Made by a program: the position numbers and the translations under genes. A DNA stretch of 59,345 bases, the filler included, from Sphacelaria rigidula (taxonomy: Eukaryota): the NCBI GenBank assembly GCA_964200075.2. It is 9 parts of 9 records of this genome, joined end to end, with 100 filler letters (N's around TTAATTAATTAA, not from the genome) between each part and the next. Parts side by side here need not be neighbours in the genome. Positions count along the whole stretch, not along the records: positions 26,423 to 32,927 come from CAXNAA020019681.1; 8 more parts are not named here. One strand, 5' to 3'. Under the pieces are notes generated by a model. That model was given only the letters and a program-made list of their open reading frames with translations, did no database searches and was not told where the DNA came from. Shown here piece after piece: positions 2,107-51,247 of the stretch. Numbering within the stretch: the stretch's first letter is position 1; each line of letters starts with the position of its first letter.

Positions 2107-3119
2107 TTAACCGGCCATTTCTGGAAATCTGGAGTTCTAGATTTCTGCTGATTGATGATGCCGACGCAAATGAAAATATAAACATTGGATGTATTCCACG
2201 GCCAAGAGGTTTTATTCCAGCCGCTCCTCGACTGGCCCGGCGAAGAGCGTCCTAAGAAATACCAGTCGATAAATGGTCTAGGAGGGTTTCCGTTTCTTTG
2301 GGTTCGGGCTCTCAATCGAACGCTAGACACTCAATCTAGCGAAAAGGTTGGTTGTTAATACCAAAGTGCCAGGCAGCCGTCGGGGCAGAGACGAGTCGAT
2401 CGGCTGATACAGCATGAATTTGTCCCGAAAAAAGGAAAGGGGCTGAACTCATCATGTCAAGAAAGAAAGAAGAAAAAAAATGACAGAGGAAGAAAGATAG
2501 GGATCTTTAGTCGGTATTTGTTTTGTCGCATATCCTTTTTCAACGGACGAGGTGGGGTCTCTCCTCCCTCTCCGGCAGTAATACTGTTGTCACTGCGTGG
2601 AACATCTTACAAGGGAGTGGTTCATACATTACTGCTATCTTATTGTCATTCTCTGCTGCTGCTACTGCTCCCTTCCTCTTGGGTGAAGTGTCTTGGCTGT
2701 AGGCGAGGGGTGCAACAGGACCTACCCCTGGATGGGTAGAGTGACTCGTGTACGGGGTCGAGCTGGGGGACATTGTAGAAGGTTTGCTCGGTGAGGAAGA
2801 CCCTACCTAGTTGAGGAAGAGGGATACGTTCAAGTCCGAGGCTACCTGGGTAGGGGAGCACCCCCACCTTGATGCCTACCCGTACATCCGATCGGACTAC
2901 GCGTAGCCTAAGGGCCGGGTACGCACGGTGGGTGGAGTGCACTCGAATGCACTGCACGATACTAGAAATAGCGAAGTGTACGGTGAAAGGTTCCTTCCTG
3001 TCTCCTGGGGACGAGAAAAAAAGAGAGAAAAAAAAAAAAAAAAAAGGTCAGGGCTCGCGCTTACTACACGAGCCCTCCCGCACTCTTTCTTCTCTAGACC
3101 TCGCATCTTGATCTTCGCG

Positions 3120-3495
3120 AACATTTTCCCATCATTCCTGAGAATGTTCCTCAAAATATTCCTGAAAACATTCCTGAAAATATTCTCTCGGTCAGTACCC
3201 TTTATTCCGAACATCCTTCGAGGGCATGCCAGAAGATATTTACAAGCTGAAACCCCTCGAAAGTACGCGAGTTTCTTCTCCAGACCCAACATCTAAAAGA
3301 CCTCGACAATATTCCAAACCTTGGACAGTATATGGTCAATAGTTGCAATAGGCTTACACTTTACGCAGTACATTTTTTTGTCTATTGCAACTATTGACTT
3401 TGTACTGTTGTACAAGGTGCGCAATATTCCCACAGCATTTCTGAGATTGTTCCTGAGGATATTCCTCAGAATGTTCCCGGGAATGTTCTTGAATG
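3120..3495 (+). repeat. Two clusters of degenerate 12-bp tandem repeats (AATATTCCTGAG-like)
   Basis: 3120-3190 and 3425-3495, e.g. ATTCCTGAGAATGTTCCTCAAAATATTCCTGAAAACATTCCTGAAAAT. Confidence 0.65.
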
Positions 3496-7205: not shown

Positions 7206-7877
7206 GTATGTCTCCCCACCCTACAGACCATAGAAGAAGTCGTAGCATTAGCTTTTGGGTAATCTAATACAGTCGTGAACGGCGGGCAATTGCCCTCGAA
7301 GAACTTCGACCCCCAAATTAGGTTGTTGGTGGGACGCTCCCCTCAAAATTTTTGTCTTGTAGACGGTGGCTATCAGCGCTGCGACAATTGTCGAGGCTCT
7401 TTTGATGCGTTCGCTACCGATCGACACGCTTATGTCTTCACGGTCGCCTTTATTGCAGTAGATATCGTCAGTGGTGTTCATGCGTGTTTGGCGTCCTCGC
7501 ATGTCCCAATGTCCCAAATTTGGCTTTGCTGAGTTTACCCGGGAGAGAAAAAAAGCCTCTGGTGAAATACTTATTTTTTTCTGCGTGCGTGCGTCTTTAG
7601 TCGCATCGTCATCATCCCCCGTGGAGTCCAAGACAGGTAAGGTGGCATGACCGTTAGGTGCCTCAAGGAAGTACTACTCCCAATATTAGAGGTTACGACT
7701 GCCGCGCTTTACTCGATTATTTCAGGTGCAAGTAGCTCACTTCCCCTCACTCACTCACCCGGACCCGGCTTACTGGCTGGTTGTGCCGGGAGATGTGTCG
7801 TTCTTTCTCGTTTTTTTTTTCACGGTGGTCCAGGTGTTCTGCCACACTCACCGCTCCTACCCACTTGCCCCCGCCAG

Positions 7878-13212: not shown

Positions 13213-16100
13213 TCACAGAGTCGGTGAATTGCGCTGAAGACGTATCCACGCGATCTAGGGGCAATAGGCCGACAAAAACGTCATTGAGCACCATCGCTGA
13301 AAGTGTGAGGAAAGCACTGTTCCTGGCATCATTTCGGAGTTAAACCTCAATCCGCACAATTTGTTGTTATAGCCTTCCTTGTCCACCGTAGCTGTAGCCC
13401 ACCGAACCTGCACTCGACGAAAAGTTCCGCTAAGGCACCCCATCGACTCATGGCTCATGTCTTCCACCGCCAATGTACCATCCAGCTCATCCTCCGGCAC
13501 CTGCGTAAGAAAACTTCCCCTAGTGTAGATCCGATGCATCTGGAAACAGGAGCACCTCATACCCCCTGCTTGTGATATGACAAAGCGATAGCATGTGCCA
13601 CCAAATCTTGCGCCTCGTGCCACGCCTGAGCACGCCTGGACCTCCATGCCGACTCCTCGATTGTGCGATGTGACGCCACTCGCTTGGTACGGCGCATGTT
13701 TCCCTGTATGTGTTCCTCCCGTACTACCCGCAGCGGCTCCACTACCTCCACCAGACGCAGCAGGGACATTCTCAGCCAGTTTACCGCCTGCAGAAACTGC
13801 ATAAGCTCGCCTGCTGTGCGCGGGCGCCTAAGATTGGCCTCTCGCGGTCATGAGCCACTTGACCACCTGGGAAGACCTTTCCGCACCACGTGATCTGTGT
13901 GTCGTAGAACATCATGCACTTGTGCGCAGCCGCAAAAATGATTGGCATCCTCCAAATAGCCCAAAATCTCGTCCAATATACACAACAGATCATCCTCATC
14001 TTAATCCCTCCACAAGATATCATCCAGCCATACTTTACACTGAAGTCCGGCCAATGACCCTGTCATGATGCCTTGAAAATACCCTGTCGCATTCAACACC
14101 CCTTGTGCCCGTGTGCGGGTATACAGACCTTCGGGAGTCGCGATTGTAAACATTTCTTGTGCATCAGCCGCCAACGGCATCTGCCAGTACCCCTGCAGCA
14201 TATCAAACTTGCCAAAACACGCAGCTCCTAGCAGATCGATCATTTCCGCCTCGTGGTTAGGCATGACATTTGGAACCTTCTCAATCTGCTTGTTCACCGC
14301 GCGAAAATCACTCCCCAATCGATAACCGCCCTTCTTCGGCGTCGCCATGGCCGCACTCGCCCACACTGCCTGTAAGCTGGGAAATACGAGCCCAAGCGCT
14401 ACCAGCGTCGCCATGCACTCTGTTAACCACGTCGCCTTTACAGGGAAATACATCCGCGGGCTCGCCTATCTAGCCCCAGGTTTGAATCTCACCTTCAAAA
14501 AGCCTTGACACGGCGCCCAACAACCTCCCGGAGCTTATCAACGCTGCTCGCTGACATCCCCTTCTCCACGGCCGCCTGTACCGCATGATCCAATGCAACA
14601 CGACGCTCTGCCAGCTCCTCCTCTGGACTCCCCTGGAGTCATGTTCATCTCGGGATCACGCGACATCAATCGCTCAACGGAGGGATCCACAGGCTCCTCT
14701 CGTCCACCTAGATCCTGTAACGCCTCAATTGCAATGCTCACTCGCTCACATTCTCGGAATTCAGGCGTATCTGCACCTCTCACCGTTGACCCCAGGGAGA
14801 GAAAACCTCTGTAAAAAATTGGCCCAAAGAAAAAGGGTGGGGTATAGCGTGGTGGCTATGATAGGAGTAGACTGCTAGGGAACCCGGTGCACACACTCTG
14901 GAAATGAGTGAGGGGAACACGAGGAAATCAAGGTGACGGTGACAGTGACAACATTAGAATGTTCCTGATTGCAGTCGATAGAGCGCTGGCAAATGGAGTC
15001 GCCCTCCTCGGAGTGAAAGTGCCGGGGATCCAACCCCCACGACTAACTTTTGTGACGGTTCAAGAGACGACCAACTAGACTACTGATCAGGCAGAACGCG
15101 TGTCTTGAGCGTGCGCATGCGTCCAGCCCACTGTACACGTCAATGCCCATGACCTCCAGCATACCACTCCCGATGATCGCCCCATCATCTGCACCTGGCA
15201 TAACCGAATAATGACACGGATTCAGCACCACCGGCCCCAAGCTAGTGTGCAGAGCGGTGCGCACTAGGCACGTCTTCAACTGTATGCTCCATACATTACC
15301 ATCGGCTAGTTTCACCGGATGTGCACGAGCCATGCTCGTGACAACTTCCACATAAGGAAACACTGCTTGCAACCGGGCCGCCTTTTTTTTTGTACATGAT
15401 AGTGATGCCAGCCCCCGAATGCAAAACAGCAGTAACAGCGCGAATGTTCTTGGCTGCGGGACCAGGAACAGGTAAGTCTGCCCGGCAGCATCGCTGCTTG
15501 CGGTCAACTACCGCACCCTCAACCTGTGGATCTGCGACCTCGGCGGTGTGCAGGCCCCGCCATATCGGCACTGTCCAAGACGTCCACTCATGAGCCGGTC
15601 CCGATGGCAGTTGGGGTTGAGCTGCAGGAATTGGAGCCGAAGGCTGGGGCGGAAACATGCTATCCGCACTACTAGCACCCCCTTGCATCCCATCCCCTGG
15701 AAAAGCAGCACGTGTGGGAGCAGAACCTTCACTGCCCCCCCGCTGACCATGGACCCGTTGCTGCTGCTGCTGCAGCTTCGGCGGAAGCAACTTTGCTTGC
15801 CCACCTGACGCACTCCCCGTGGCCGCAGGTGTGCTTTGTTTGTTACATTCCTTCTTGTAGTGACCCTTATTGCCACAGTCAAAGCAGCCTGCGTAGCTGA
15901 GACCAGGTTCGTGAGACTTTTTCGAACGTTGTGAACCGCTTTTTTGCCTAAGTTGCGGTTGCTGGCGTCAGTCTTTGTCAACCGCTTTCCCAGTCCTTCA
16001 TTTTCCCGCTGATTCATGAGCGAGCATAGATAGCTCTGGTAATGATGTGTGCTGAACCAGCATTGAATGTACGGTTAGGTTCACGGAAAATGCACCCCGC
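13213..16100 (-). mobile_element. Degenerate Ty3/Gypsy LTR retrotransposon internal region (gag knuckle, protease, RT, RNase H)
   Basis: CCHC knuckle CFDCGNKGHYKKEC (15845-15886); protease AVLHSGAG...AIIG (~15110-15460); RT YRLGSDFRAVN, KFDMLQGYWQ, KVWLDDIL (14001-14453); RNase H remnants FLTQ...LSGTF...VDKEGY; many frameshifts; upstream boundary approximate. Confidence 0.92.
14001..14453 (-). pseudogene. pol: Gypsy reverse transcriptase fragment
   Basis: Conserved RT motifs including WLDD; interrupted by a stop and frameshifts. Confidence 0.9.
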
Positions 16101-26422: not shown

Positions 26423-26461
26423 CGCCGCGCGCCCCCCCCCCCGGGGGGGGCGGCGGGGAGG

Positions 26462-26504
<43 letters not shown>

Positions 26505-26759
26505 CTACGGTGTGGAAATGCGCAATACAACACGTTCGATTTCGTTGTGGAGGCTATACCGATTGTACAACGAACGGAGAATATGCTGACACATCGGAGG
26601 CAAACACTGCACATCCCCCAACACGAGTGCGGCCTTTACAGAATCGACACTGAGACAACCTCCATTGAACGGATGCATACCGCGACGCTGAACGCAGTAG
26701 CCCCCCTCCCGGCTCTTTCGTTCCCCCCCCAAACCCCACCCCTTCACTTCGATTTCCAG

Positions 26760-29700
26760 TCAGCACCGTCCAGGGAGAAATAGGAACAGCTTGGAAGCAT
26801 ACCTTGTTCCAACCTGCGTTCCTCACCGCAAAACCGTATCCTGTGGTCCACATAGCCATGACGATCTTCAGGGGCTCAAGTGAGGACGTGGAGTTCAACA
26901 GCGTACAACAATTTCACGAGTTGTACGGGAAAACGTTGCCCGAGCAGAATCATTTCGTGCCTGTTACGGCGGACGGGGCAGACTCAGCCCACGAACACGC
27001 CGAGAGGCGTTTTCACGATGCCATGAGCATGGCGTTTGACAAGTTAGAGTCGGCAACAACAGGTTTAAAGAAGGCAGCTGAGGACTGCAAGAAGGCGGAA
27101 ACGAAGAGGAAAAAGAGTCTGGCCGAGAGGGCGTTGGAGTCACGCGCGCGAGAAACGTATCAGGTTGTATGCAGCTTGCCAAACGCTTCACTCTTCGAAA
27201 CGCACATTGCGTCTGCATCGATGCCGCGCAATTCTGCCGCACGGTGTCTCGGGCGACTACATCTGTTGCATACCGCGTTCGTCTCACGCCGCCCTCGTGT
27301 GCACGGATTCCTGCTTGTGGCCTGCAGGCGAAACTTGATCTTGATAAGCGCGAGGCTGACGTGATCCGTTTGAAGGGCTTATATTTGGTGAGTAAGGGGC
27401 GAGCGCACCCGCTTTTATGTACGTAGTGCAACCTGATCCACTTGTGTAGACGGGGGCACGATGGCTGCAGGCAAATGCTATATAAGACGGCAGGGCTCCG
27501 ACCTTGAACAGCGGGGGGTGGAGAGAGCACAGGAAACAAATATTTCGAGGAGGATTGAAATAAGGCCTTGTCCACGATTGGATGGCAACATTTCGCTAAT
27601 ATTTTGCATCAAAACGCTCAGATATCTCAAAACAAATGTTGTACGGTGCGTTCGAGGGCGCTCGCTAACCCGAAATGAGTCCCTTGTTCTGCAACACCCG
27701 TTCCAAGGCGCGCCGTCTGGAATGTGATTTGACTTTGCGTCATCCACGTAAGTCTGGTGCGCCGTCGCTGTACTGTTCGAAATACTGCTGTGTCGTCGCT
27801 CATGTACTCACAGGAACCACGGAAGTCTGAAGAAGAGGCCATCGCCGCGGAGGAGAGGTTCACTGCCGCGCAGAAGGTAACATTCGCTGATCTGAAAAAT
27901 AGTAAACTGTTCTCGATCGTCGAGGCGTGCAACATGAACGCGCAAAGCGAACACAGCAGTGGCCTACGCCGTATTGATGTTTTTATGCCGTTTGATACTC
28001 ACGCCTCCCGTGCATGAATTGCCGCGTGCAGGAGGAACGTGTGGCAGACGTCGGGCGGAAGGCCGCAGCTGCGGAAGCACAGGAGATAGCCCGGGCGAGC
28101 CGACGGGTCGAAAATGCCGGGACGGAAGATGCCCAGCGATAGGCAGAAGAAAATGAAAAAGGGAAGGGTGGGAACCAGAACGGTGGTGGGGCCAACGGCG
28201 CAAAAGAGCAGGCAGGTCGGGGGGGAGGGGGAATGGGGGAACGCGCCGGCGAGCAGGGACTTCTTCCGGCGGGCGATGTCCAGGGCGCAGCCAGGGCAGA
28301 GGTGGACAAACGTGCGAAAGAACAACGGTTGCGTAGACTCTCTCTAGAAGCGGAGGCTAAGATCGACAGGGATTTCAATGCTGACCGCGAACGGCGTGCC
28401 CGTCGCAAGCTCAAGAGGAGGGCGAAGAAGTGTAAAGTACGAGCGCGCCGGAATGCAGAGAAGGTGGGCACCACTGGCTTGCCTGTGTGCCTGCGGGGAA
28501 ATGCTTGTGACAGCGCGTCGAGACTTGTAAATACCATCGAAATCTGCCTGTGAATACGAGCCACGCTACGATAGGGGGGGGGGGATTTTGGGCCGTTTTG
28601 ATCCACGAAATTCCACCTGAAACTGTCGTCGAAAGTGGCAACGGTTGTTCAAATCCGCTTAGTTTCGACAAATAGCACACGTTCATACTACTTGGCACCG
28701 CTCTCAACCAAGTAGAAGCGCACCGCGAGTGTGTTCAGCCGTCTGACGTACCCATCAGCCCATTTGTTCGTGGAAGCAAACACCCCCCCCCCCTCTCTCG
28801 TGGCATGTCTCATACAGTGTATGTTCCTGTCGAAATATTCGCCGGGCTGTCGCGAGAATTGGGCAGATTATTGGCACCAGGTTGTTGGTGGGGCACGTGC
28901 GGTCGATATTGTGCTGATTCGGCGGACATATATATGTTTTCACCCGACTTGACCGTACATGCTCTCATGTACTGCGGTGCCCGCTGTGTTAGGGGTCCCA
29001 GGATATACAAGTCGGCACCCGTCTTCACGACGGGTGGTGCAATAAAGAAAACCCTGGCTATGGGATGGTGATGGGCGTTAACTGGGATTCTTCAGGCCAG
29101 GTGGTGGCGAGTTACGAAGTCTTCTCGCGCGCGAGTGGGAAATTGCAGACGATGTTCCCGACGGCCGTGAGAAAGGATGCCGCGTACGCACAGCGTGTGG
29201 CGGCGTGGGGGGGGAGTACGGATGAGGACAGTGGCTGTGACGAACATAACACCGAAAGCGCGGAGAGAGGACGTTCTCGGCGGCTGCGAGGTGGCGATCG
29301 TGCCGACAGTGATTGGGAGGATGGAAGTTCGGATGAGGACGGCGACTCTCATGACGACAGTACGGAGATGATTGATGACGATCGTCCTCGGCAACTTCGA
29401 GAGAGCGGATGTTCCGACAGTGATGGGGAGGGCGGACGTTTCGATGACGACGGCGCCTCTCATGACGACAGCACGGACATCGGCGATGACGATCGTCCTC
29501 GACGACGGCGAGATAGGGAGCTTTCCGAGATTGTCGGGGAGGGCGGAGGTTTCGATGACGGCAGCAGTTCGCAGGACGACAGCATGGAAATCATTGAAGG
29601 AGACTGTTCGCCGTGGCGGCGAGATAGCGAGCGTGTCGACAGTGATATAGAGAGTGGGAGTTCCGCAGAGGATAGTGGCTCTCATGAGGCAACACGGGCG

Positions 29701-31039
29701 TCACGGAGCAAGACCGTTCTCGGCGGCGGCGAGGTGATGAGCATTCCGCCGGTGATAGAGACGCTGGAAGGTCGGAGCAGGATTGTACATACCGTGACCA
29801 CTGCACCCACCTCCCACAAGAAGTCCGTTCTCGGCGGCGGCGGGAATGCGAGCCTTCCGCCGATGATGGGGCTAACGGAAGTTCGGAGCTGCACGGCGGC
29901 TCCCACCACCACAGCAGCGATTGTGGACAAAACGATCGTGGTGGCTCCGAGGAATTCAGCGAGGCGGATGATCGATGTTCCAGAACGACGAGCCAATATC
30001 TGCATGGCTGCAGGGACGGGCAAAAGGTGCGGACAAAAGAGCGTACTGGTCCATTGATTGATAGAACTATGCCGACAGTGCGCGCGCGTCCTGGGAGTGT
30101 CAATGGTACTCTCACTCGTTTCTGCGTGTTCTCCCGCCGGACAGGGAGCTTTCCCAGGGTATACTGCAGACACAGGGGGCCAAGAAAACAACGGGAGCAA
30201 CGCAGGCGCGGCGCCGGTTGCGAGGATTGGTCGTGCATTCACCGTCACAGGTTCCCCCGAAGACACTTGGGGCTCTGTCTTCGACGAGCTCGTGCGCGAT
30301 TTCCGCCAGGCGGGTCATGAGACGCTGCGGGTGCGACGGGTGGTAAAGGTGGGTGCTATGCAGCAACGAGCAGGTGACATGACAACCACATGAACACACG
30401 GGGCACACTGTCAGGAGCGATCGGCGCTGGGCACATCGCCTCTTCGCGCGGAATAAAAGAAGAGGAGACCTCATGCAATGAAGACATGACAACATCAGCG
30501 AATCCCGCCCGATCGCAAACACGGGTATCCATCATCTTGCAGACGGCGGACGGGTTGAGGTACACTTACTGCAAGATCGAGTGCGAGCATTCGGGGCAAC
30601 CTCGGATAAAGGATCAGATGAAGCCAGGTGGCTACCGTCGAGCCGTCAATCCATCAAAAAAGGTCAGTGAACACTGCGTCGGCAACCTGGCGTATGTCGG
30701 TAGAACATACGACAGACTCACCACGCGATGTTGGAGGCCGATGTTCCCACTTTTTCTGCGCAACGTTCTTTTGTCGTGCCCCCATAGCACACGTGTGTTG
30801 GTGCTCACCATCCCACACCGTGAGCACGACAGGATGCCTGTCGGCAACTTTGTGCTCAAAGGACGCCTCAAATCGTGACCTCCTGGACAGGTGGGATGTC
30901 CATTTCTTGTCAGCATCACCTGGGCTCTTCGGGATGATGCGCCACACGTCACCGTGGTGAGTGCTGTGGTACGAACCCAGTCGCCAAAAACTAGATATTT
31001 CTTCTGCGTTTCGGGCGCGGCAAGTTTTTTTGCACTAAG
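26760..31039 (+). pseudogene. Multi-exon disrupted gene: C-terminal half of a vertnin-like OTU domain, coiled coil, acidic repeats, FAR1/ZSWIM3-like (Mutator-type) zinc finger
   Basis: Inferred exons 26760-27387, 27814-30026, 30145-30662, ~30829-31039 with GT/AG ends (last acceptor apparently mutated). Motifs VHIAMT...NHFVPV and YCKIECEHSGQPR...SKK|TGC...WDVHF. Several frameshifts and stops. Confidence 0.6.
29270..29930 (+). repeat. 111-bp degenerate tandem repeat (37-aa acidic/Arg-rich unit), ~6 copies
   Basis: Register positions 29305, 29416, 29527, 29638, then 29710 and 29821. Confidence 0.8.
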
Positions 31040-31284
31040 GTAAGTGGGACCAGCGCTGTGAGAGAGGGAACGCACGTTTGGGATTGAATGAGGTTGCGTG
31101 TTTGAGTCAATTCTTTAACGCTTGCAAACCATACCGTAATGACATCATGACATCATGTACTGTTGTTGTCCGTCTCCTCGGAGCTGGTATCCGAAAGGCG
31201 ATCCCCATCGTCACAAAAATAATCGCTGAAATCGCACCAACTGTGTTCGCACCCGCTTTTCACCAAAGTGCAACACCAACTTAC

Positions 31285-31943
31285 TTGGATTGAACACCCT
31301 CAGCGGACCTCCTACGACAGTGGCCATGATGGGGAATGCGAACTGCTGCGTGAAAACCCCCGGCGCAGACATATGCCACAGCTGCCGGACGAACATTAAC
31401 CGTGCGGTGTCCCTCGAGTCGAGAGATAACCCGTCGTCCAGTCCGGGAGACACGGTCCCCCCGGAGGTTGCCAGATCTTCCCTCACTTCCGTGGTGTAGC
31501 AGGGCCAGGCTCCATAAAAATCATATTGATCACCGAGGAACAACTCCATGTACTTGATCCCCGTGATCACGGTGGCCAGTCTCAGCTTTCTGGCCAGCCA
31601 CAATATGGCCTTCCGACGGTCGCCCCTCCTACTTTTCGCGATGATCAGCGTCGCGTTGGCTTTCATGAAACAGTCCCCGTTCCCAATGCACTGGAAAGCG
31701 ATGCCAACCCCACCACCATCTTCGGGGTTCGCTCCTTTCAAAAGGGCCTCCGTTACTCTGTCGACGTCGACTCCCTTCTTCAGGAGGTCCTCCTTGACCT
31801 TAGCGGCATGCATCCGAGGAGGCACACGACGGAGGGCCGAAGGGTGAGATTGTGTCTCTCTCTGAAAACAGATCTTCAACGCGTCACACCTCTTGATGGC
31901 GTCTCGGGTGGATCTCGATATCGATGACCCTGTTCCCCATCCG
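31285..31943 (-). pseudogene. Exon encoding the N-terminal half of a vertnin-like OTU cysteine protease domain
   Basis: AFQCIGNGDCFMKA...LARKLRLATV...MSAPGVF...IMATVVGGPLRVFNP; TTGAAG acceptor and GTAAGT donor; lies in the frame of ORF 31211-31879. Confidence 0.65.
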
Positions 31944-32927
31944 CTTCAAACAAAGTACAGTTCCAACACTATGCCATAGTCGATTTGATGTCCCAGTAGA
32001 TATCAACGTCTATTGCCAGTTTCACATGCGGCTAGTTGACTATCCTCCAAATCCCTCGATACGGCATTCACCGTTCCAAAGGGGAGAGAAGCTCGTTTCA
32101 TCCCTGTGGAGGGTGGGTAGTATCCTCCTGCCCAGGGGTTGAACACCGGTAGAGAAACAGCCCACAGCTGGTCGCTCTAGAGGGAGGGAGACGGACACAG
32201 CACAACATGAAATCCTCTCAGAGGTCACTCGTCCTCTAGTAGCGGTGTTTTATTTCTCTGAAGAGGTATGAACTTTCGTGCGGAGGGATTTCCGGGGGTA
32301 GTCAAATGGCGGCGTGCGTTTACCGAGGAAGCCGCTTGCGTGGGGGCCTGGTTGAATCACGGTGATTGTGGAGGCGGTATGTTCTTACTCTGAGGTGCAG
32401 TGCATTCTTGCAGGTTCTCAACTGCCAATAGGCCTGCGCTCCTTCTTCGATCGCAGAACAAGCAGAAAAAGGAGAATACCGTTTCTTTGCGCAGAAAAAC
32501 CGCCGTGCAAAAGAGGAGCAAGAGGACAACAATAAGTAGCACTTTTTTTTTAATTGAGCAGATGCCATCGCAGAAAAAAAAGCATCATGTTTTCTTTGCG
32601 CCGAAAAAGGGCCGTGATAAGAAATTGCATGAAAAACAAATTATCTCGCTGATTTGTGGAGATACAGCAGACGTTTCACGTCAACAGTTAAGCCAGACTG
32701 GTACCTTGGGGATCCCCGATCAAAAGTCAAGTAAAAACAGGGCTCCCCACGTGGTCCCCCACCGTTTTACTAGCCTAGCTGAACTTTTCCTCCTTTTTGG
32801 TATTGTCTCAACCATTGGCGGGTCATTTTTTGTGCAAACGCAGGGGCGGAAAAGGGGGGAGGGGGGTGCAGAAAACAGAGAATAGTGCACGAAAAGCGCA
32901 GAAGAGCCAGAAAACAGGAAAAAAATT

Positions 32928-34932: not shown

Positions 34933-36900
34933 TTATCTCCCATATTCGGTTACAGCCTTCAGCAGTCTCTGATGTACGATTCTATCACAGCTTATGGTGA
35001 GAAGATCCGCTAATTGTTCCGAAGTTCGTACATAGTTTATCCTTAGTTGTCCGGCTCGAATCATATCTTTTAAATTAAAGAATCGTATCGCTAGGTATTT
35101 CAAGCTAGTGCTGAAGTTGGCGTTCGAAGACAGATGAAGTGCGCCTTGTGAATCCGAGTAGATAGTCGCGGGCTCAATAGATGACCATCCAAGCTCTCGT
35201 ATCAGATTGAAGAGATACGTTCCGAATTTGCCGGATTTCGAAAGGCCAATTAACTCGGCTTCTGTCGTTGAAGTGGCTGTTATACGTTGTAAGCTCGAAG
35301 TGAAGTGAACGAGCCCGTTCCACAGAAAAAATAACGTCCCCGTTGTTGATCGCATTTTCCCCTGAAGTCCGGCATTACCATAGCTAGCATCACAAAATCC
35401 CTTCAAAACCAGATTCTTATTGGAGGTTGAGTACGTTAGCGGAAGATCGGGTTTTCCCTTCAGATACCGAAACATCCGTTTAACTGCTACTAAGTTTTCC
35501 CTTCAGATACCAACCTTGAACCGCCAACCGGGCTTTAAAACGTCCGTCGGCTTTGACCTTAAAGACCCGCCTTGTACCGATGATGTCGTGGTTGCTGGCC
35601 GGGATGATATCGACTACATCATGATTCTTGATACTTTGAAGTTCGTCCAGCATGGCTGCTTGCCGTTTCGTTGAGTATGGTGAGCTCGAGGCCTGTAGAT
35701 AGTTGGTAGGTACTGTAATTGACGCGGGTGGTGAAACCTGTTCATTTCCGACAGTGAATATGTACTGACATACCATTTCCAGTGTTGCTGCAGCATGTTG
35801 ACCCCCAGAAGACATGAAGGCTAGTCGCTTTAGCTCACTAGCTTGCCGTTTGTTAATAGGTCCAGGAGGATGTTGATTGGGACCGCCAGCTGAACGCAAC
35901 CTCCTTTGGGCGATAGGCGGCCCTGTAGTCGGTGAATTGTCCTCCGTGGTGCTGTTCTCTAGCTGAGCTATAACATCGTAAATATTTATGTTGAAGTTGA
36001 TTGTGTCGTCACGATGTTCCTTATCAACAGCAGATACGTCGGGCTCCTGGATATCCAATGTCAAAAAATCTTCATCACTGCAAGGAGCTCCTGTTACTTG
36101 TTCGATGAAAGTGACGTTTCTGGAGCTGGACATTTTTCCCGAGTAGCGGTTGTAAATGCGGTACGATGGACTATCGGAATCATACCCTACCAGCACTCCT
36201 TCCCAAGCCTTTTCTTCTATCTTACTGGGATGATGCTCCCTGTGCACAAACGTCCTCGAGCCGATTGTTCGCAAGGATGATAATTACGGTTGCTTGAGAA
36301 ACATCCGAAAAAATGGTGTATCGCCGCCGATGCTTGTGTGTGGTAGACGATTGATTAAAAAGACCGCAGTTGCAGCAATTTCTCCCCAAATAAATTTCGG
36401 AAAATTTGATTCGTTCAGGAGACGACGTGTAACGTTCAAGATACTCCGCCTGTCTCTTTCACTGATGCCATTCTGTTGAGGAGTATATGGACTGGTGAAC
36501 TCTTGACGGATACCCGTAGTCTTGCAGCACCTCTTAAAATAGTCCGCGATGTATTCACCCCCACGGTCTGACCACAGACGGTGTACATGGAGCCCTGAAG
36601 GAATAGCTCAATTTTGGATCAACCTGCAGAGCGTAGTTCGGGTTTCATCCTTCGTTTTGATGAAGTAAACTACCTTGAAACGCGAGAAGTAATCCGTAAA
36701 TTTTGCCGTGTAGCGGTAGCCGCCCTGCGCCATGGGCGTAATCGGCCCTGTTAGGTCAGTGCTGACCAATTGCAGTCGTTCCAAAATATTCGTGGAGTCT
36801 ACGGCTTTGGGTGGTCCTGCTGTACACTTTTATTAAGCTTGCACGTAACACAAGGTGACAGTGACCCCTCAAAGTTCACACCTGGTTCAGGAATATTCAG
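34933..36900 (-). pseudogene. pol: Copia integrase, truncated RT and RNase H
   Basis: DDE integrase motifs; SH3-like GVLVGYD; RT jumps from ARLAVQG directly to KRMFRYLKG; RNase H ORF 34933-35475. Confidence 0.92.
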
Positions 36901-36915
36901 TAGACGGCGCATGAC

Positions 36916-38964
36916 CTACTCCGTGGGATGTCCAAGTCGCCTATGCCAAATGTCTGCTCCTGTCGTGATAGACAAAGCTGTCGGTTCTGCTCCCGCTGTG
37001 GCAGACATGACTGCTGAAATTCCCGGCACGTCGTGGTGCATGGCTTCTGCAACAACGGCTGACCCGATGCCCATAGGTTCTCCCGACATAATTGTAGCTG
37101 CAAATGCTGAGCTGTTATTAATATAACCCGGTTTCCGAGAAACTCTCACGCTGATGTACTGTAACGCTCCGTTGCTGTCACTGTTGATTGGCACTTTAAA
37201 CTTTCCGAGGTCTATATGGGACTCGTGAGAAAGTATAGTCGAAGCGCCCTTTGCAAGAGCTTGCACAGGGGAGAACAGATGCTTCCCCAAACCTGGGACA
37301 ATTACGGCTGGGAGCCGAACAGAACGTTGGTACCCCTCAGAGTCAATGACCACGGTGTTCAGAACTCTTTTTGCTGTACCATAGAGTAGATGGCGCTCCG
37401 CTGTTAAAATCGTCATCGGGGTATCGAGTTTGACCAGCTCGACCATTTCACATTCGATGTCGGGTAGCAACTGATCATCCAGAAAGTGTCCAGTGCTGCC
37501 GCTATCCACTGTCAACTGAAGAGAAGTTTGATCGGATGTATCAGTGACATATGAACCAGAGAGAAGAGAAAATCCCATGCCGTTTGGTGGTGATGATGTA
37601 TATATCACTGTCGCAGTTGTTGTTGATAAAGAAGTTTGTATACCGTTGTTATTCGATGGTGCGGTTGTAGAAGCTGGATCGGCGACGACTGTGTTGGCTT
37701 GGCGTTGATGTCCGTTGGAGTTGTTGCTGTTGTGGTTGCTCCTACTGTTGTTGTTGCTGCTGTTGTCACGGTTGTTATTTCGATGGCGGGGTTTTCTGCG
37801 ACGATGATGGTTATTATTTTTGTTGTTTCCAGCGTTGTAGGCTGCATTCCCGCGGTTCTGTTGAGATCTACAATCAGAATCGTCATGCTTGTTAGTATGA
37901 GGGAAACTGCACCATTTTATAGGCCTGTTCCCGTCATTTGACTGCATTTGGGAGCGATAGTCTCTGGCCTGATGTCCTGGTTTCCCGCAGGTGTCGCAAT
38001 TTCCACGAAGGTTTTGGGGTTGATTCAAAGATCTCGACAGTGATGTCACCAGCAGTGATGAATCGCGGCCATGCGATTTCCCGGAGGTATATCTCCGCGC
38101 CATGCGATTAGCAAACATATTTTGCATTGTTCTTTCGATGCTCTGAATACTGAGATCTTGATCACGCTCCGCATTGTACTTGATGAGGTCATACTCACTT
38201 GTTAAACCTTCGATCACTATGTCAGTCAGCCTTTCTTCGTAAATGGCCTCGCCAAGGTTGTCCTGTTCGTCCCGAAGCTGATACACATTGCTCGAGAAAG
38301 TATCAGGGTCTTGCCCTGGTGACATGGAGACGTTGTTGAGTTCTCTCATCAAGATCCTGATTATCTGCTTCGAAAACTTTTGATACCTGGAAATCAAAGC
38401 CTCCCATGCACGTTTGCCGTTTGGTCTCTCTGAACCCCTCGGCTGGAAACGCAACAAATAACTCGCTGCAGGACCAGTTGTAGACAGGTACAAAACGTGG
38501 AACGATTATTGATTGCACCGGTCCCAACTTTCTATCTCACGCGTGTTAGAAACCCGCCTCAGATGTGACACCACGCTTGGAGAACGAGGTTCTCGTGTAG
38601 AATGATGGTTTTCTTCGGTAGGTCCAGTCACATCCACCGCCGCGATCGTCTCGTCCCCAGCGGTTGCCTCCACCGATGAGAAATGCGGTCGAACGGACGA
38701 CCGCTGGCGGGTGGTTTGAGAACGAGTTCTAGCAGGGGTAGGTCTTGTGGCAGCTGGTTGTGGACGATCTACCTCAGAAAAATCTTCTTCTAGTTCCGCG
38801 GGGCGTTTGACCCCGTTGAGGATATCTGCAATCCCCGGATGAGTCAAAGAAATGATTGCGCGCGTAGAGCGCATCCACTCTCCGAACTTTGTACCGTCGA
38901 ACTTGTTGATGCTCTTGATGAGCTGAGTTACAGATGGCTCTCCCGACATATTCATCTGCCTCAC
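36916..38964 (-). pseudogene. gag: Copia gag-protease-pre-integrase region (ORFs 38506-38964 and 36916-38493)
   Basis: AWEALISRY gag motif; damaged knuckle CDTCGKPGHQARDY; second Cys/His motif WCSFPHTNKHDDSDC; DSG protease. Confidence 0.9.
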
Positions 38965-39163
38965 GTTACTAATAAAACTATTCTCTTCACACCTGCAGAT
39001 CTTTCGGCAAGATCAGAGACTTTCGATTGTCGCTGCTGTGGCGACCTTGATGTGACACCTCCTCGCTCGTGCTGACCGATGTAGTCTTGACCCGAAGACT
39101 GATGACCTGAAGACCTAGGTGGTCGCGAATCAAAGGCACCTGTTGGCCTATGTGGTTACGAAC

Positions 39164-49883: not shown

Positions 49884-51247
49884 GTGAAGATATGATATCA
49901 GGATTGATGTGTCACGGACGATTTTTTGCGGAGATCTCAGAAACACTAGAAGGATTGCAGAACAAATAAAGAAGGCGCTGAAATGCACTAGGAAATGGAT
50001 AGTGACAGCGAACATTAGCAAATGCGCAGTACTTGTATGTGACGAAGAAAATAAAAATCCGGTAGAGAGTTCATGTGGAAGTAGGGAGGAGAGGAACTGC
50101 CGATTGTATACCAGGATACATACCTCGGCGTAGAGATCTCAAAAAACAGTTCTTGGGATGCACACGTGAATAAAGTCATGGAAAAGGGTGAGGCACAGAT
50201 AGGCAGGATGGATGTGAACTACAGAGACTCGCACCTAGATACTAGGGTCAAGATACGTATCCTGATGAACGTAATCTTACCAAAGCTGGAATATGCGGGA
50301 GAAGTACGGGAGGGGAACGTGAAGTTGAAGAAGTTGAAAACAGCACAGTTGGCAGCAGCTAAAAAGGTACTTGGGTGCTCGAAAACGAAGAGTAATACAG
50401 CATTGAGAGCAGAGATGGGAATGTACCCACTTGAAACAGAGATGTGAGAGAAGTGAGATGGCAACATGGCGTGAAGAACATGCAGGGTAAGAGATTGAAA
50501 GCCATAGTTGATGGGACTGCAAGGAAGAAAGTAACGAAAAGGCGGGCTGGAATAAGGTGGGATAGAGAAGTCGAGAAAGTATGGAAGGAGATAGGAGTAA
50601 ATCAAGACGAAATACTGTCCATAAGTGAGGGTTCCGGGTACAGGACAGATAGAAATAAGGGGGAAAGAAACGCTCAGACGCAAAGTAGACGAGGGAAAAC
50701 ACCTGGAGATATACGGGTGGTTGAGAGAAGGGATGGGAATAGAAAGATATCTGCATGGCCCACTGGACGCGGCGAAAAAATCGAAACTGCGATTTCGGGT
50801 AGGGGACCTGGACCTGCCAAAAAGCAGAACGAGGTAGATACACCAGTGGTCGAGAGGAGGAGGAAGTAGACGCACAGAATTGCCCCCGTGGCAAAGCAAT
50901 AGAAAGCAGAACTCGGTAGTGGAAAAACGTGAACTATGAACTATGCAAGGAGGAACGGGACGTGCTACAGGGGTAAATGAGGAACGTGAAATACGGTGGC
51001 ATGAAATCGTTTGATGCATTAGACAGTAGGGAGAAAACGATGGCTATACTATGATATAGATGGTGGCCACACACGGGAACACAGGACGGGGATAAGATAT
51101 GTGAAAGGTTTCGTGTAATGTGTGGGAGAAACATAATGAGCACCGAAATATTGGAGGTATCTCTACTATGAGTTGGAACGGTGCTCCTTCTTCAAAGGGA
51201 TGTGTAGTCAAAGGTCAAATGACCGAGACAAGCAACAAATGAGTACG
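49884..51247 (+). mobile_element. 5'-truncated, decayed LINE (RT C-terminus, Zn-knuckle remnant, 3' UTR), probably RTEX-like
   Basis: GLM.TDDF (degenerate YADD), KW..TANISKCAVL, YLGV, ILPKLEYAGEV, KKVLG...SNTALRAEMG, KLRFRVG, CP.G..IESRT; imperfect 16-bp TSD at 49868-49883 and 51248-51263. Confidence 0.9.

Follow-up and report, generated by a model that had tools for sequence, protein, structure and literature searches.

A predicted OTU-fold domain split between two strands in Sphacelaria rigidula belongs to a dead, probably rearranged copy of a Mutator-like DNA transposon

Why would two halves of one OTU-like domain stand on opposite strands of the same contig? We analysed a stretch of 59,345 nt (the window, spacers included) from the Sphacelaria rigidula assembly GCA_964200075.2, in which near-equal contigs (~6505 nt) are strung together with 100-letter N spacers, and neighbours across a spacer are probably not adjacent in the genome. 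The locus in question is contig C19681 (CAXNAA020019681.1, window 26423–32927), which is gap-free and carries a poly-G run at its start. The original prediction had placed the Cys half of an OTU-like domain on its minus strand and the His half on its plus strand, and had proposed a single gene broken by an inversion. Both halves were confirmed in the sequence: the Cys half as the minus-strand frame CIGNGDCF...RVFNP with the terminal CCA A/GTAAGT at 31285 (the slash marks the splice site), the His half behind the plus-strand acceptor TTTCCAG/TCAGC at 26760, which requires one base and opens the frame STVQGEIG...NHFVPV. The splice phases of the two are compatible, as had been claimed. In the order in which a transcript of an intact copy would meet them, the features of the contig are:

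31799–32927, minus strand: part of a ~1.7 kb intron that precedes exon A; an upstream exon and the left terminal repeat lie past the contig end
31285–31798, minus strand: exon A, Cys half of the predicted OTU-fold domain (514 nt, 171 codons plus 1 base)
31039–31284, minus strand: 5′ part of the phase-1 A–B intron (the intron between exons A and B in intact copies)
31021–31038, no strand: strand-switch junction with an 18-nt filler (at most 21 nt by alignment edge), found once in the assembly
26423–26504, plus strand: contig start, a G/C-rich low-complexity run over the poly-G tract of the A–B intron; any second breakpoint would fall within this run or further out
26505–26759, plus strand: 3′ part of the A–B intron, with pyrimidine tract and acceptor
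26760–27163, plus strand: exon B, His half of the predicted OTU-fold domain, then a helical region; putative donor at 27164
27328–27387, plus strand: exon B2 (60 nt, phase 0), with a putative acceptor and a donor from the runs guessed to be RNA
27814–27876, plus strand: exon C (63 nt), from the runs guessed to be RNA
28032–28463, plus strand: exon D (432 nt), interrupted in this copy by a premature TAG at 28140–28142
28557–28811, no strand: separate high-copy repeat within the D–E intron, not in copy C3660
28993–30026, plus strand: exon E, containing 111-nt acidic repeats; lacks one base at 29689, a frameshift in this copy
30145–30348, plus strand: exon F, start of a FAR1-like DNA-binding region, with the same motifs in the homolog P0042
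30543–30662, plus strand: exon G (YCKIECEH...), FAR1-like region
30891–30956, plus strand: exon H (VGCPF...), with a putative donor

Exon boundaries were read with the help of public sequencing runs, two of which (X6 and X7) were treated as RNA, being guessed to be so, and two of which (X1 and X3) are of DNA type. Exon A had been thought to start at 31943, but the 659-nt span from 31943 to 31285 is not in coding frame, and contigs of both RNA-guessed runs have loose ends at 31800, where they depart from the genomic sequence into an upstream exon; we revise the start to 31798. This upstream exon ends in a phase-0 donor and is present in 10 of 27 other contigs searched. For the donor of exon A, one RNA-guessed run holds a contig that terminates exactly at 31285. 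Six GT–AG introns from exon B2 to exon H appear in both RNA-guessed runs, while the B–B2 intron (27164–27327) is suggested by a single sign, a dip in depth at 27260 in both; given this putative intron, all exons join in frame. The predicted catalytic codons lie at 31672–31670 (Cys, exon A) and 26951–26953 (His, exon B). The window copy breaks off at 31020 in the intron after exon H, ahead of the Mutator-like element (MULE) transposase core. The short repeat in the D–E intron (28557–28811) shows very high contig depth in the public runs.

That the halves are consecutive exons of one OTU-like domain, as the original prediction held, is borne out by homologs. A profile built from six half-A sequences retrieved 61 relatives among 1.84 billion representatives; four of the eight looked up carry source names, all of them brown algae. 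One homolog, P0018, is intron-less and holds both halves in a single protein. In another, P0042, half A runs to residue 88 and residue 97 corresponds to residue 8 of half B, which matches the proposed join without a gap. Because of this gapless spacing and the presence of both halves in P0018, we do not regard the A–B join as a chance fit. The fold test was run on the P0018 domain rather than on the joined peptide of the window. Its model (pLDDT 73, pTM 0.66) is OTU-like: VIA-align places OTU-type deubiquitinases in all of its first 31 rows (Z 9.6–5.1), with unrelated folds from Z 4.5 onward, and the best match, OTUD1 (4bop; Z 9.6, rmsd 3.4, 137 residues aligned), covers both halves. Foldseek ranked its matches for the same model similarly, with a best E of 3.2e-3 and none below 1e-3. 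With OTUD1 (4bop), OTUD3 (4bou), VCPIP1, Cezanne/A20 and nairovirus OTUs, P0018 has the fold and the Cys-loop and HFV motifs in common, although identity is just 8–18% in the ten best rows. Judged from the model of this homolog, the window halves would form an OTU-fold domain. The original prediction had called the domain vertnin-like; none of the searches brought up a vertnin profile, sequence or structure.

Sequence-level searches reached less far. Pfam returned nothing under E 0.01 on seven open reading frames of the window, both halves included, and among 21 homologs PF02338 matched one above cut-off (P0004, E 3.1e-5) and two more below it. A search of PDB sequences with the half-A profile gave a single chance match, a word-based search with half A among longer proteins gave no homolog, and the first Atlas match (0.88), whose cluster is 28% OTU, serves as a lead only. 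Across aligned rows the Cys is invariant (6/6) and the His is kept in four of five, with Tyr in copy C12443; the catalytic roles of both are predicted. Abundant in both RNA-guessed runs is an exon A contig with one base missing at 31674, directly before the catalytic Cys codon, a loss that the two DNA-type runs do not show. It is probably a highly transcribed defective copy of another strain. Since the dominant exon A contig of these runs lacks this base, it counts against an active product.

What gene, then, was split? The original prediction was right that the two exons belong to one gene, but the gene is a transposon's rather than the host's: the two halves are part of the coding region of a multicopy Mutator-like DNA element. 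Genome-wide, 28 matches were found to half A, 6 to half B and 44 to the left terminal end; read depth was not taken as copy number. On a composite ruler the full element measures ~14.7 kb. In the copy at C380:9825–21066 the ends match each other in inverted orientation over ~190–205 bp at ~90%, with 28-bp sub-repeats, and begin and end GGG...CCC. Seven copies have two ends, of which three are flanked by a perfect 9-bp target duplication, two by one with two mismatches, and two (C903 and C380) by none. Short two-ended derivatives (0.46–1.44 kb) of the same transposon are C3271, C7877, C18589, C18106, C20523 and C903.

The transposase assignment comes from copies other than that of the window, whose contig does not contain the MULE domain. 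PF10551 matched one C380 exon (E 7.4e-6, 26.8 bits), one of four stretches scanned; the score falls just below the 27.6 cut-off because a single exon holds only part of the domain. The motifs QLDTT, DADLA and HLYCLRH occur in this order. SWIM and FAR1 motifs were seen by eye, and the respective Pfam matches are weak and below cut-off (SWIM, E 0.023; FAR1 in homolog P0042, E 0.0015). P0042, a predicted protein, combines the OTU half and the FAR1-like region in one chain, and splice-site phases of other copies are compatible with a frame that runs on into the MULE core. Read together, these sequences suggest a single OTU–transposase protein encoded by one frame through to the MULE core, with the OTU domain seemingly at its N-terminus. 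An alignment search with both halves among proteins of 612–2000 residues returned only P0018 and P0042 and none with OTU plus MULE core, which is weak evidence. Within the transposase region of C380 (16879–17347; L023:2880–3348) lies a hairpin of ~470 bp with 221-nt arms that are 80% complementary; it is common to many copies and is possibly an old nested miniature element.

Collinear relatives of the split gene are present in this genome. Six other copies, located by an intron motif, span the A–B intron, and in every one of them the sequence past window position 31042 runs through the poly-G tract into that of window position 26489 onward. Exons A and B lie on the same strand with intact splice sites in C3660 (551 nt between them) and C2428 (552 nt), and exon B is deleted in the remaining four. 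Among distant paralogs, a B-like stretch likewise follows A on its own strand in five of seven contigs, in some cases with weak E-values, and both of those read out carry a phase-1 donor at the matching position. The DNA-type runs X1 and X3 also carry the collinear form at 31042 (three and two contigs, respectively). Intact copies would have, on one strand, an upstream exon, exons A and B with the OTU domain, a helical and an acidic region, the FAR1-like exons, the MULE core and a putative SWIM finger. Could transcripts from both strands nonetheless be trans-spliced into a working protease? Donor, acceptor and phase of the window copy are intact and mutually compatible, but this compatibility is inherited, the same sites being cis-spliceable in the collinear copies, so that trans-splicing is unnecessary to explain it. 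The arrangement is moreover unique among 21 copies rather than fixed, a stop and a frameshift follow exon B in the window copy, and the RNA-guessed contigs, with 17 differences from it in 457 nt, hence derive from other copies. We give trans-splicing practically no credence, and agree with the original prediction in ranking it last.

The window copy differs from its relatives by a change of strand. Its junction joins element position 7876 (window 31020, in the H–I intron) to position 3313 of the opposite strand (window 31039, in the A–B intron). The inversion breakpoint had been sought at 31045–31275; the observed one, 31020/31039, falls just outside. In the window copy, a ~4.5 kb internal segment reaching from the A–B intron to the H–I intron would be inverted against the left arm, the part that carries exon A. 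Its two arms do not overlap in element coordinates and come close to meeting (3313 and 3349). Compared with five copies that have both arms, the two show parallel divergences (6.4/6.3, 6.2/7.2, 7.4/7.3, 7.7/7.6 and 8.5/9.4%). Taken together, parallel divergence and abutting, non-overlapping arms favour an inversion within one copy. The copy is neither autonomous nor intact: besides the strand switch it has a stop at 28140 and, relative to all four public runs, a one-base deletion at 29689, and the transposase core is not on its contig. We consider it probable that it is a dead, internally inverted transposon copy. The inversion may have arisen through double-strand-break repair or abortive gap repair, leaving the 18-nt filler behind. 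Break or gap repair is a known source of such junctions in DNA transposons. Of the 20 other copies, 14 carry internal deletions that leave the strand unchanged, with fillers or short overlaps.

Several candidates for what lies at the junction were discarded. Position 31020 is not the right end of the element, as other copies run 6.8 kb further, and the apparent donor AAG/GTAAGT at 31040 is a look-alike created by the filler. A local template for the filler was ruled out (564, 1085 and 355 of 2000 shuffles scored equally well), and neither the window nor the fetched contigs contain a source with fewer than four mismatches.

Is the junction genuine? A chimeric fragment could have fused a pair of repeat copies, or a pair of segments from a single copy, in head-to-head orientation during library preparation or assembly. 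The assembly is fragmented (27,214 contigs), the family is repetitive, the contig starts in low-complexity sequence, and the junction was seen once and is unsupported in the listed rows of the four runs. On the other hand, the filler occurs nowhere else in the assembly and in none of the other copies, which is unlike an assembler join at shared repeat sequence, as such a join would not leave a filler of this kind. The contig is, moreover, gap-free across the junction and the divergences of its arms are concordant. We judge such an artefact to be distinctly improbable.

A fold-back, or inverted nesting, would account for the same junction without splitting the domain at all. Exon B would keep its own exon A beyond the poly-G break, and the minus-strand exon A would come from another left arm, inverted and attached at 31020, that belongs either to this copy or to a sister copy. 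Four contigs begin with the middle arm at or soon after the G tract (C19681, C23820, C12443 and C20668; C23820, too, has a low-complexity start at this tract), in four others (C12687, C22188, C23490 and C14491) the left arm stops short of the tract, at the contig end or close to it, and the two nearest relatives of the window left arm (3.8 and 4.0% diverged) are both among these G-tract-broken contigs. The left breakpoints of many internal deletions cluster at element ~3000–3450 (exon A and the A–B intron), near the poly-G tract, which is possibly a fragile or stalling site. A fold-back would, however, require the break of the inverted arm to fall within ~35 nt of an independent contig break, and a near-identical second left arm did not turn up, the closest being 3.8% diverged. 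We therefore hold it to be unlikely, if worth keeping in view.

Some observations weigh against a dead, internally inverted copy of this transposon. The strand switch is seen in the window copy alone (1 of 21 family contigs mapped), and two of the seven two-ended copies lack a target duplication. The concentration of deletion breakpoints near the poly-G tract makes the abutting arms compatible with a fold-back as well. No counterpart of the predicted second junction turned up, all six intron-motif and all eight downstream-motif matches in this fragmented assembly being collinear, which a fold-back would also explain. In the four runs, no joint or contig among those listed bridges 31020–31039; even the best run covers just 52% of words, with contigs that are not identical to the window copy. 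The A–B splice junction is likewise not among the joints listed, but the runs do not appear to contain the window copy and hence provide no test of it. Of the inversion originally proposed, the strand switch, a break in the intron and a probable second break at or beyond the contig start stand, whereas a clean inversion is unproven because the second junction is unseen. We infer that the junction is real DNA, and likewise infer the second junction, the repair mechanism and the A–B and B–B2 splices.

Elsewhere in the window, other repeats are apparent by eye. Open-reading-frame remnants at 34933–39012 (minus strand) presumably derive from a copia-type retrotransposon, with gag, integrase, reverse transcriptase and RNase H motifs, and fragments at 14001–14465 (minus strand) and 50085–50869 (plus strand) look like parts of gypsy-type and LINE-type reverse transcriptases.

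How does this family compare to known transposons? FAR1/SWIM-type MULEs have been described from hosts that include stramenopiles (PMC6446971). According to the parts of that source available to us, they resemble the present family in their ~200 bp terminal inverted repeats, 9-bp duplications and MULE domain, and in having many internally deleted copies; their SWIM finger and FAR1-type N-terminal region have putative counterparts in it. The family described here differs from them in its length (~14.7 kb), its many introns and an OTU-fold domain upstream of the DNA-binding region; the terms 'OTU', 'protease' and 'Ectocarpus' have no occurrence in the main text of PMC6446971. Medicago MULE transposases with a C-terminal OTU protease (PMC1702500) share the combination of MULE and an OTU-superfamily papain-like domain, apparently in one polypeptide as far as that source goes. 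The OTU domain is C-terminal in Medicago, whereas that of the brown-algal family seems to be on the N-terminal side and is interrupted by a phase-1 intron that is conserved. OTU domains also occur in Ginger1 transposases and Helitron/Helentron proteins, and Ulp1 in MULEs (PMC2836005, PMC6431247). In the portions of these two papers that we could draw on, DNA transposons are similarly equipped with a ubiquitin or SUMO protease for which a role during transposition has been proposed, but the transposase superfamilies are others (Ginger1, Helitron) or the protease fold is another (Ulp1), and the Ginger1 protease is C-terminal. A literature search, with Repbase, most subscription papers and supplements outside its reach, found no account of a MULE with an N-terminal OTU or of this brown-algal family, and PMC6875170 and PMC5751038 contributed nothing of specific bearing.

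Together, the split OTU domain is most likely part of an ordinary, rearranged and dead transposon copy, and the matching splice phase across strands is an inheritance from a collinear ancestor, a cautionary case for reading such matches. As a by-product, the analysis has mapped a Mutator family of ~14.7 kb whose OTU-fold domain appears to lie on the N-terminal side of the transposase frame. Tentatively, and with more doubt than confidence, we propose that this is an undescribed brown-algal kind of Mutator element with one spliced transposase, led by an active OTU that would strip ubiquitin at or near the site of transposition, and that the same OTU clade and intron head other brown-algal frames, including those of P0018 type, possibly a second, unclassified mobile element. 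In C8328 (L047:5835–9206) and in P0018 (residues ~420–870), a paralogous OTU is followed by a conserved domain of ~400 residues (56% identity over 442 residues), which had no Pfam match and no usable Atlas match (P0018 460–870) and may belong to a different mobile element or to a host gene family. If its enzyme is active, the Mutator family would offer a test of whether the ubiquitin proteases of transposons assist transposition, as discussed in the accessible part of PMC2836005.

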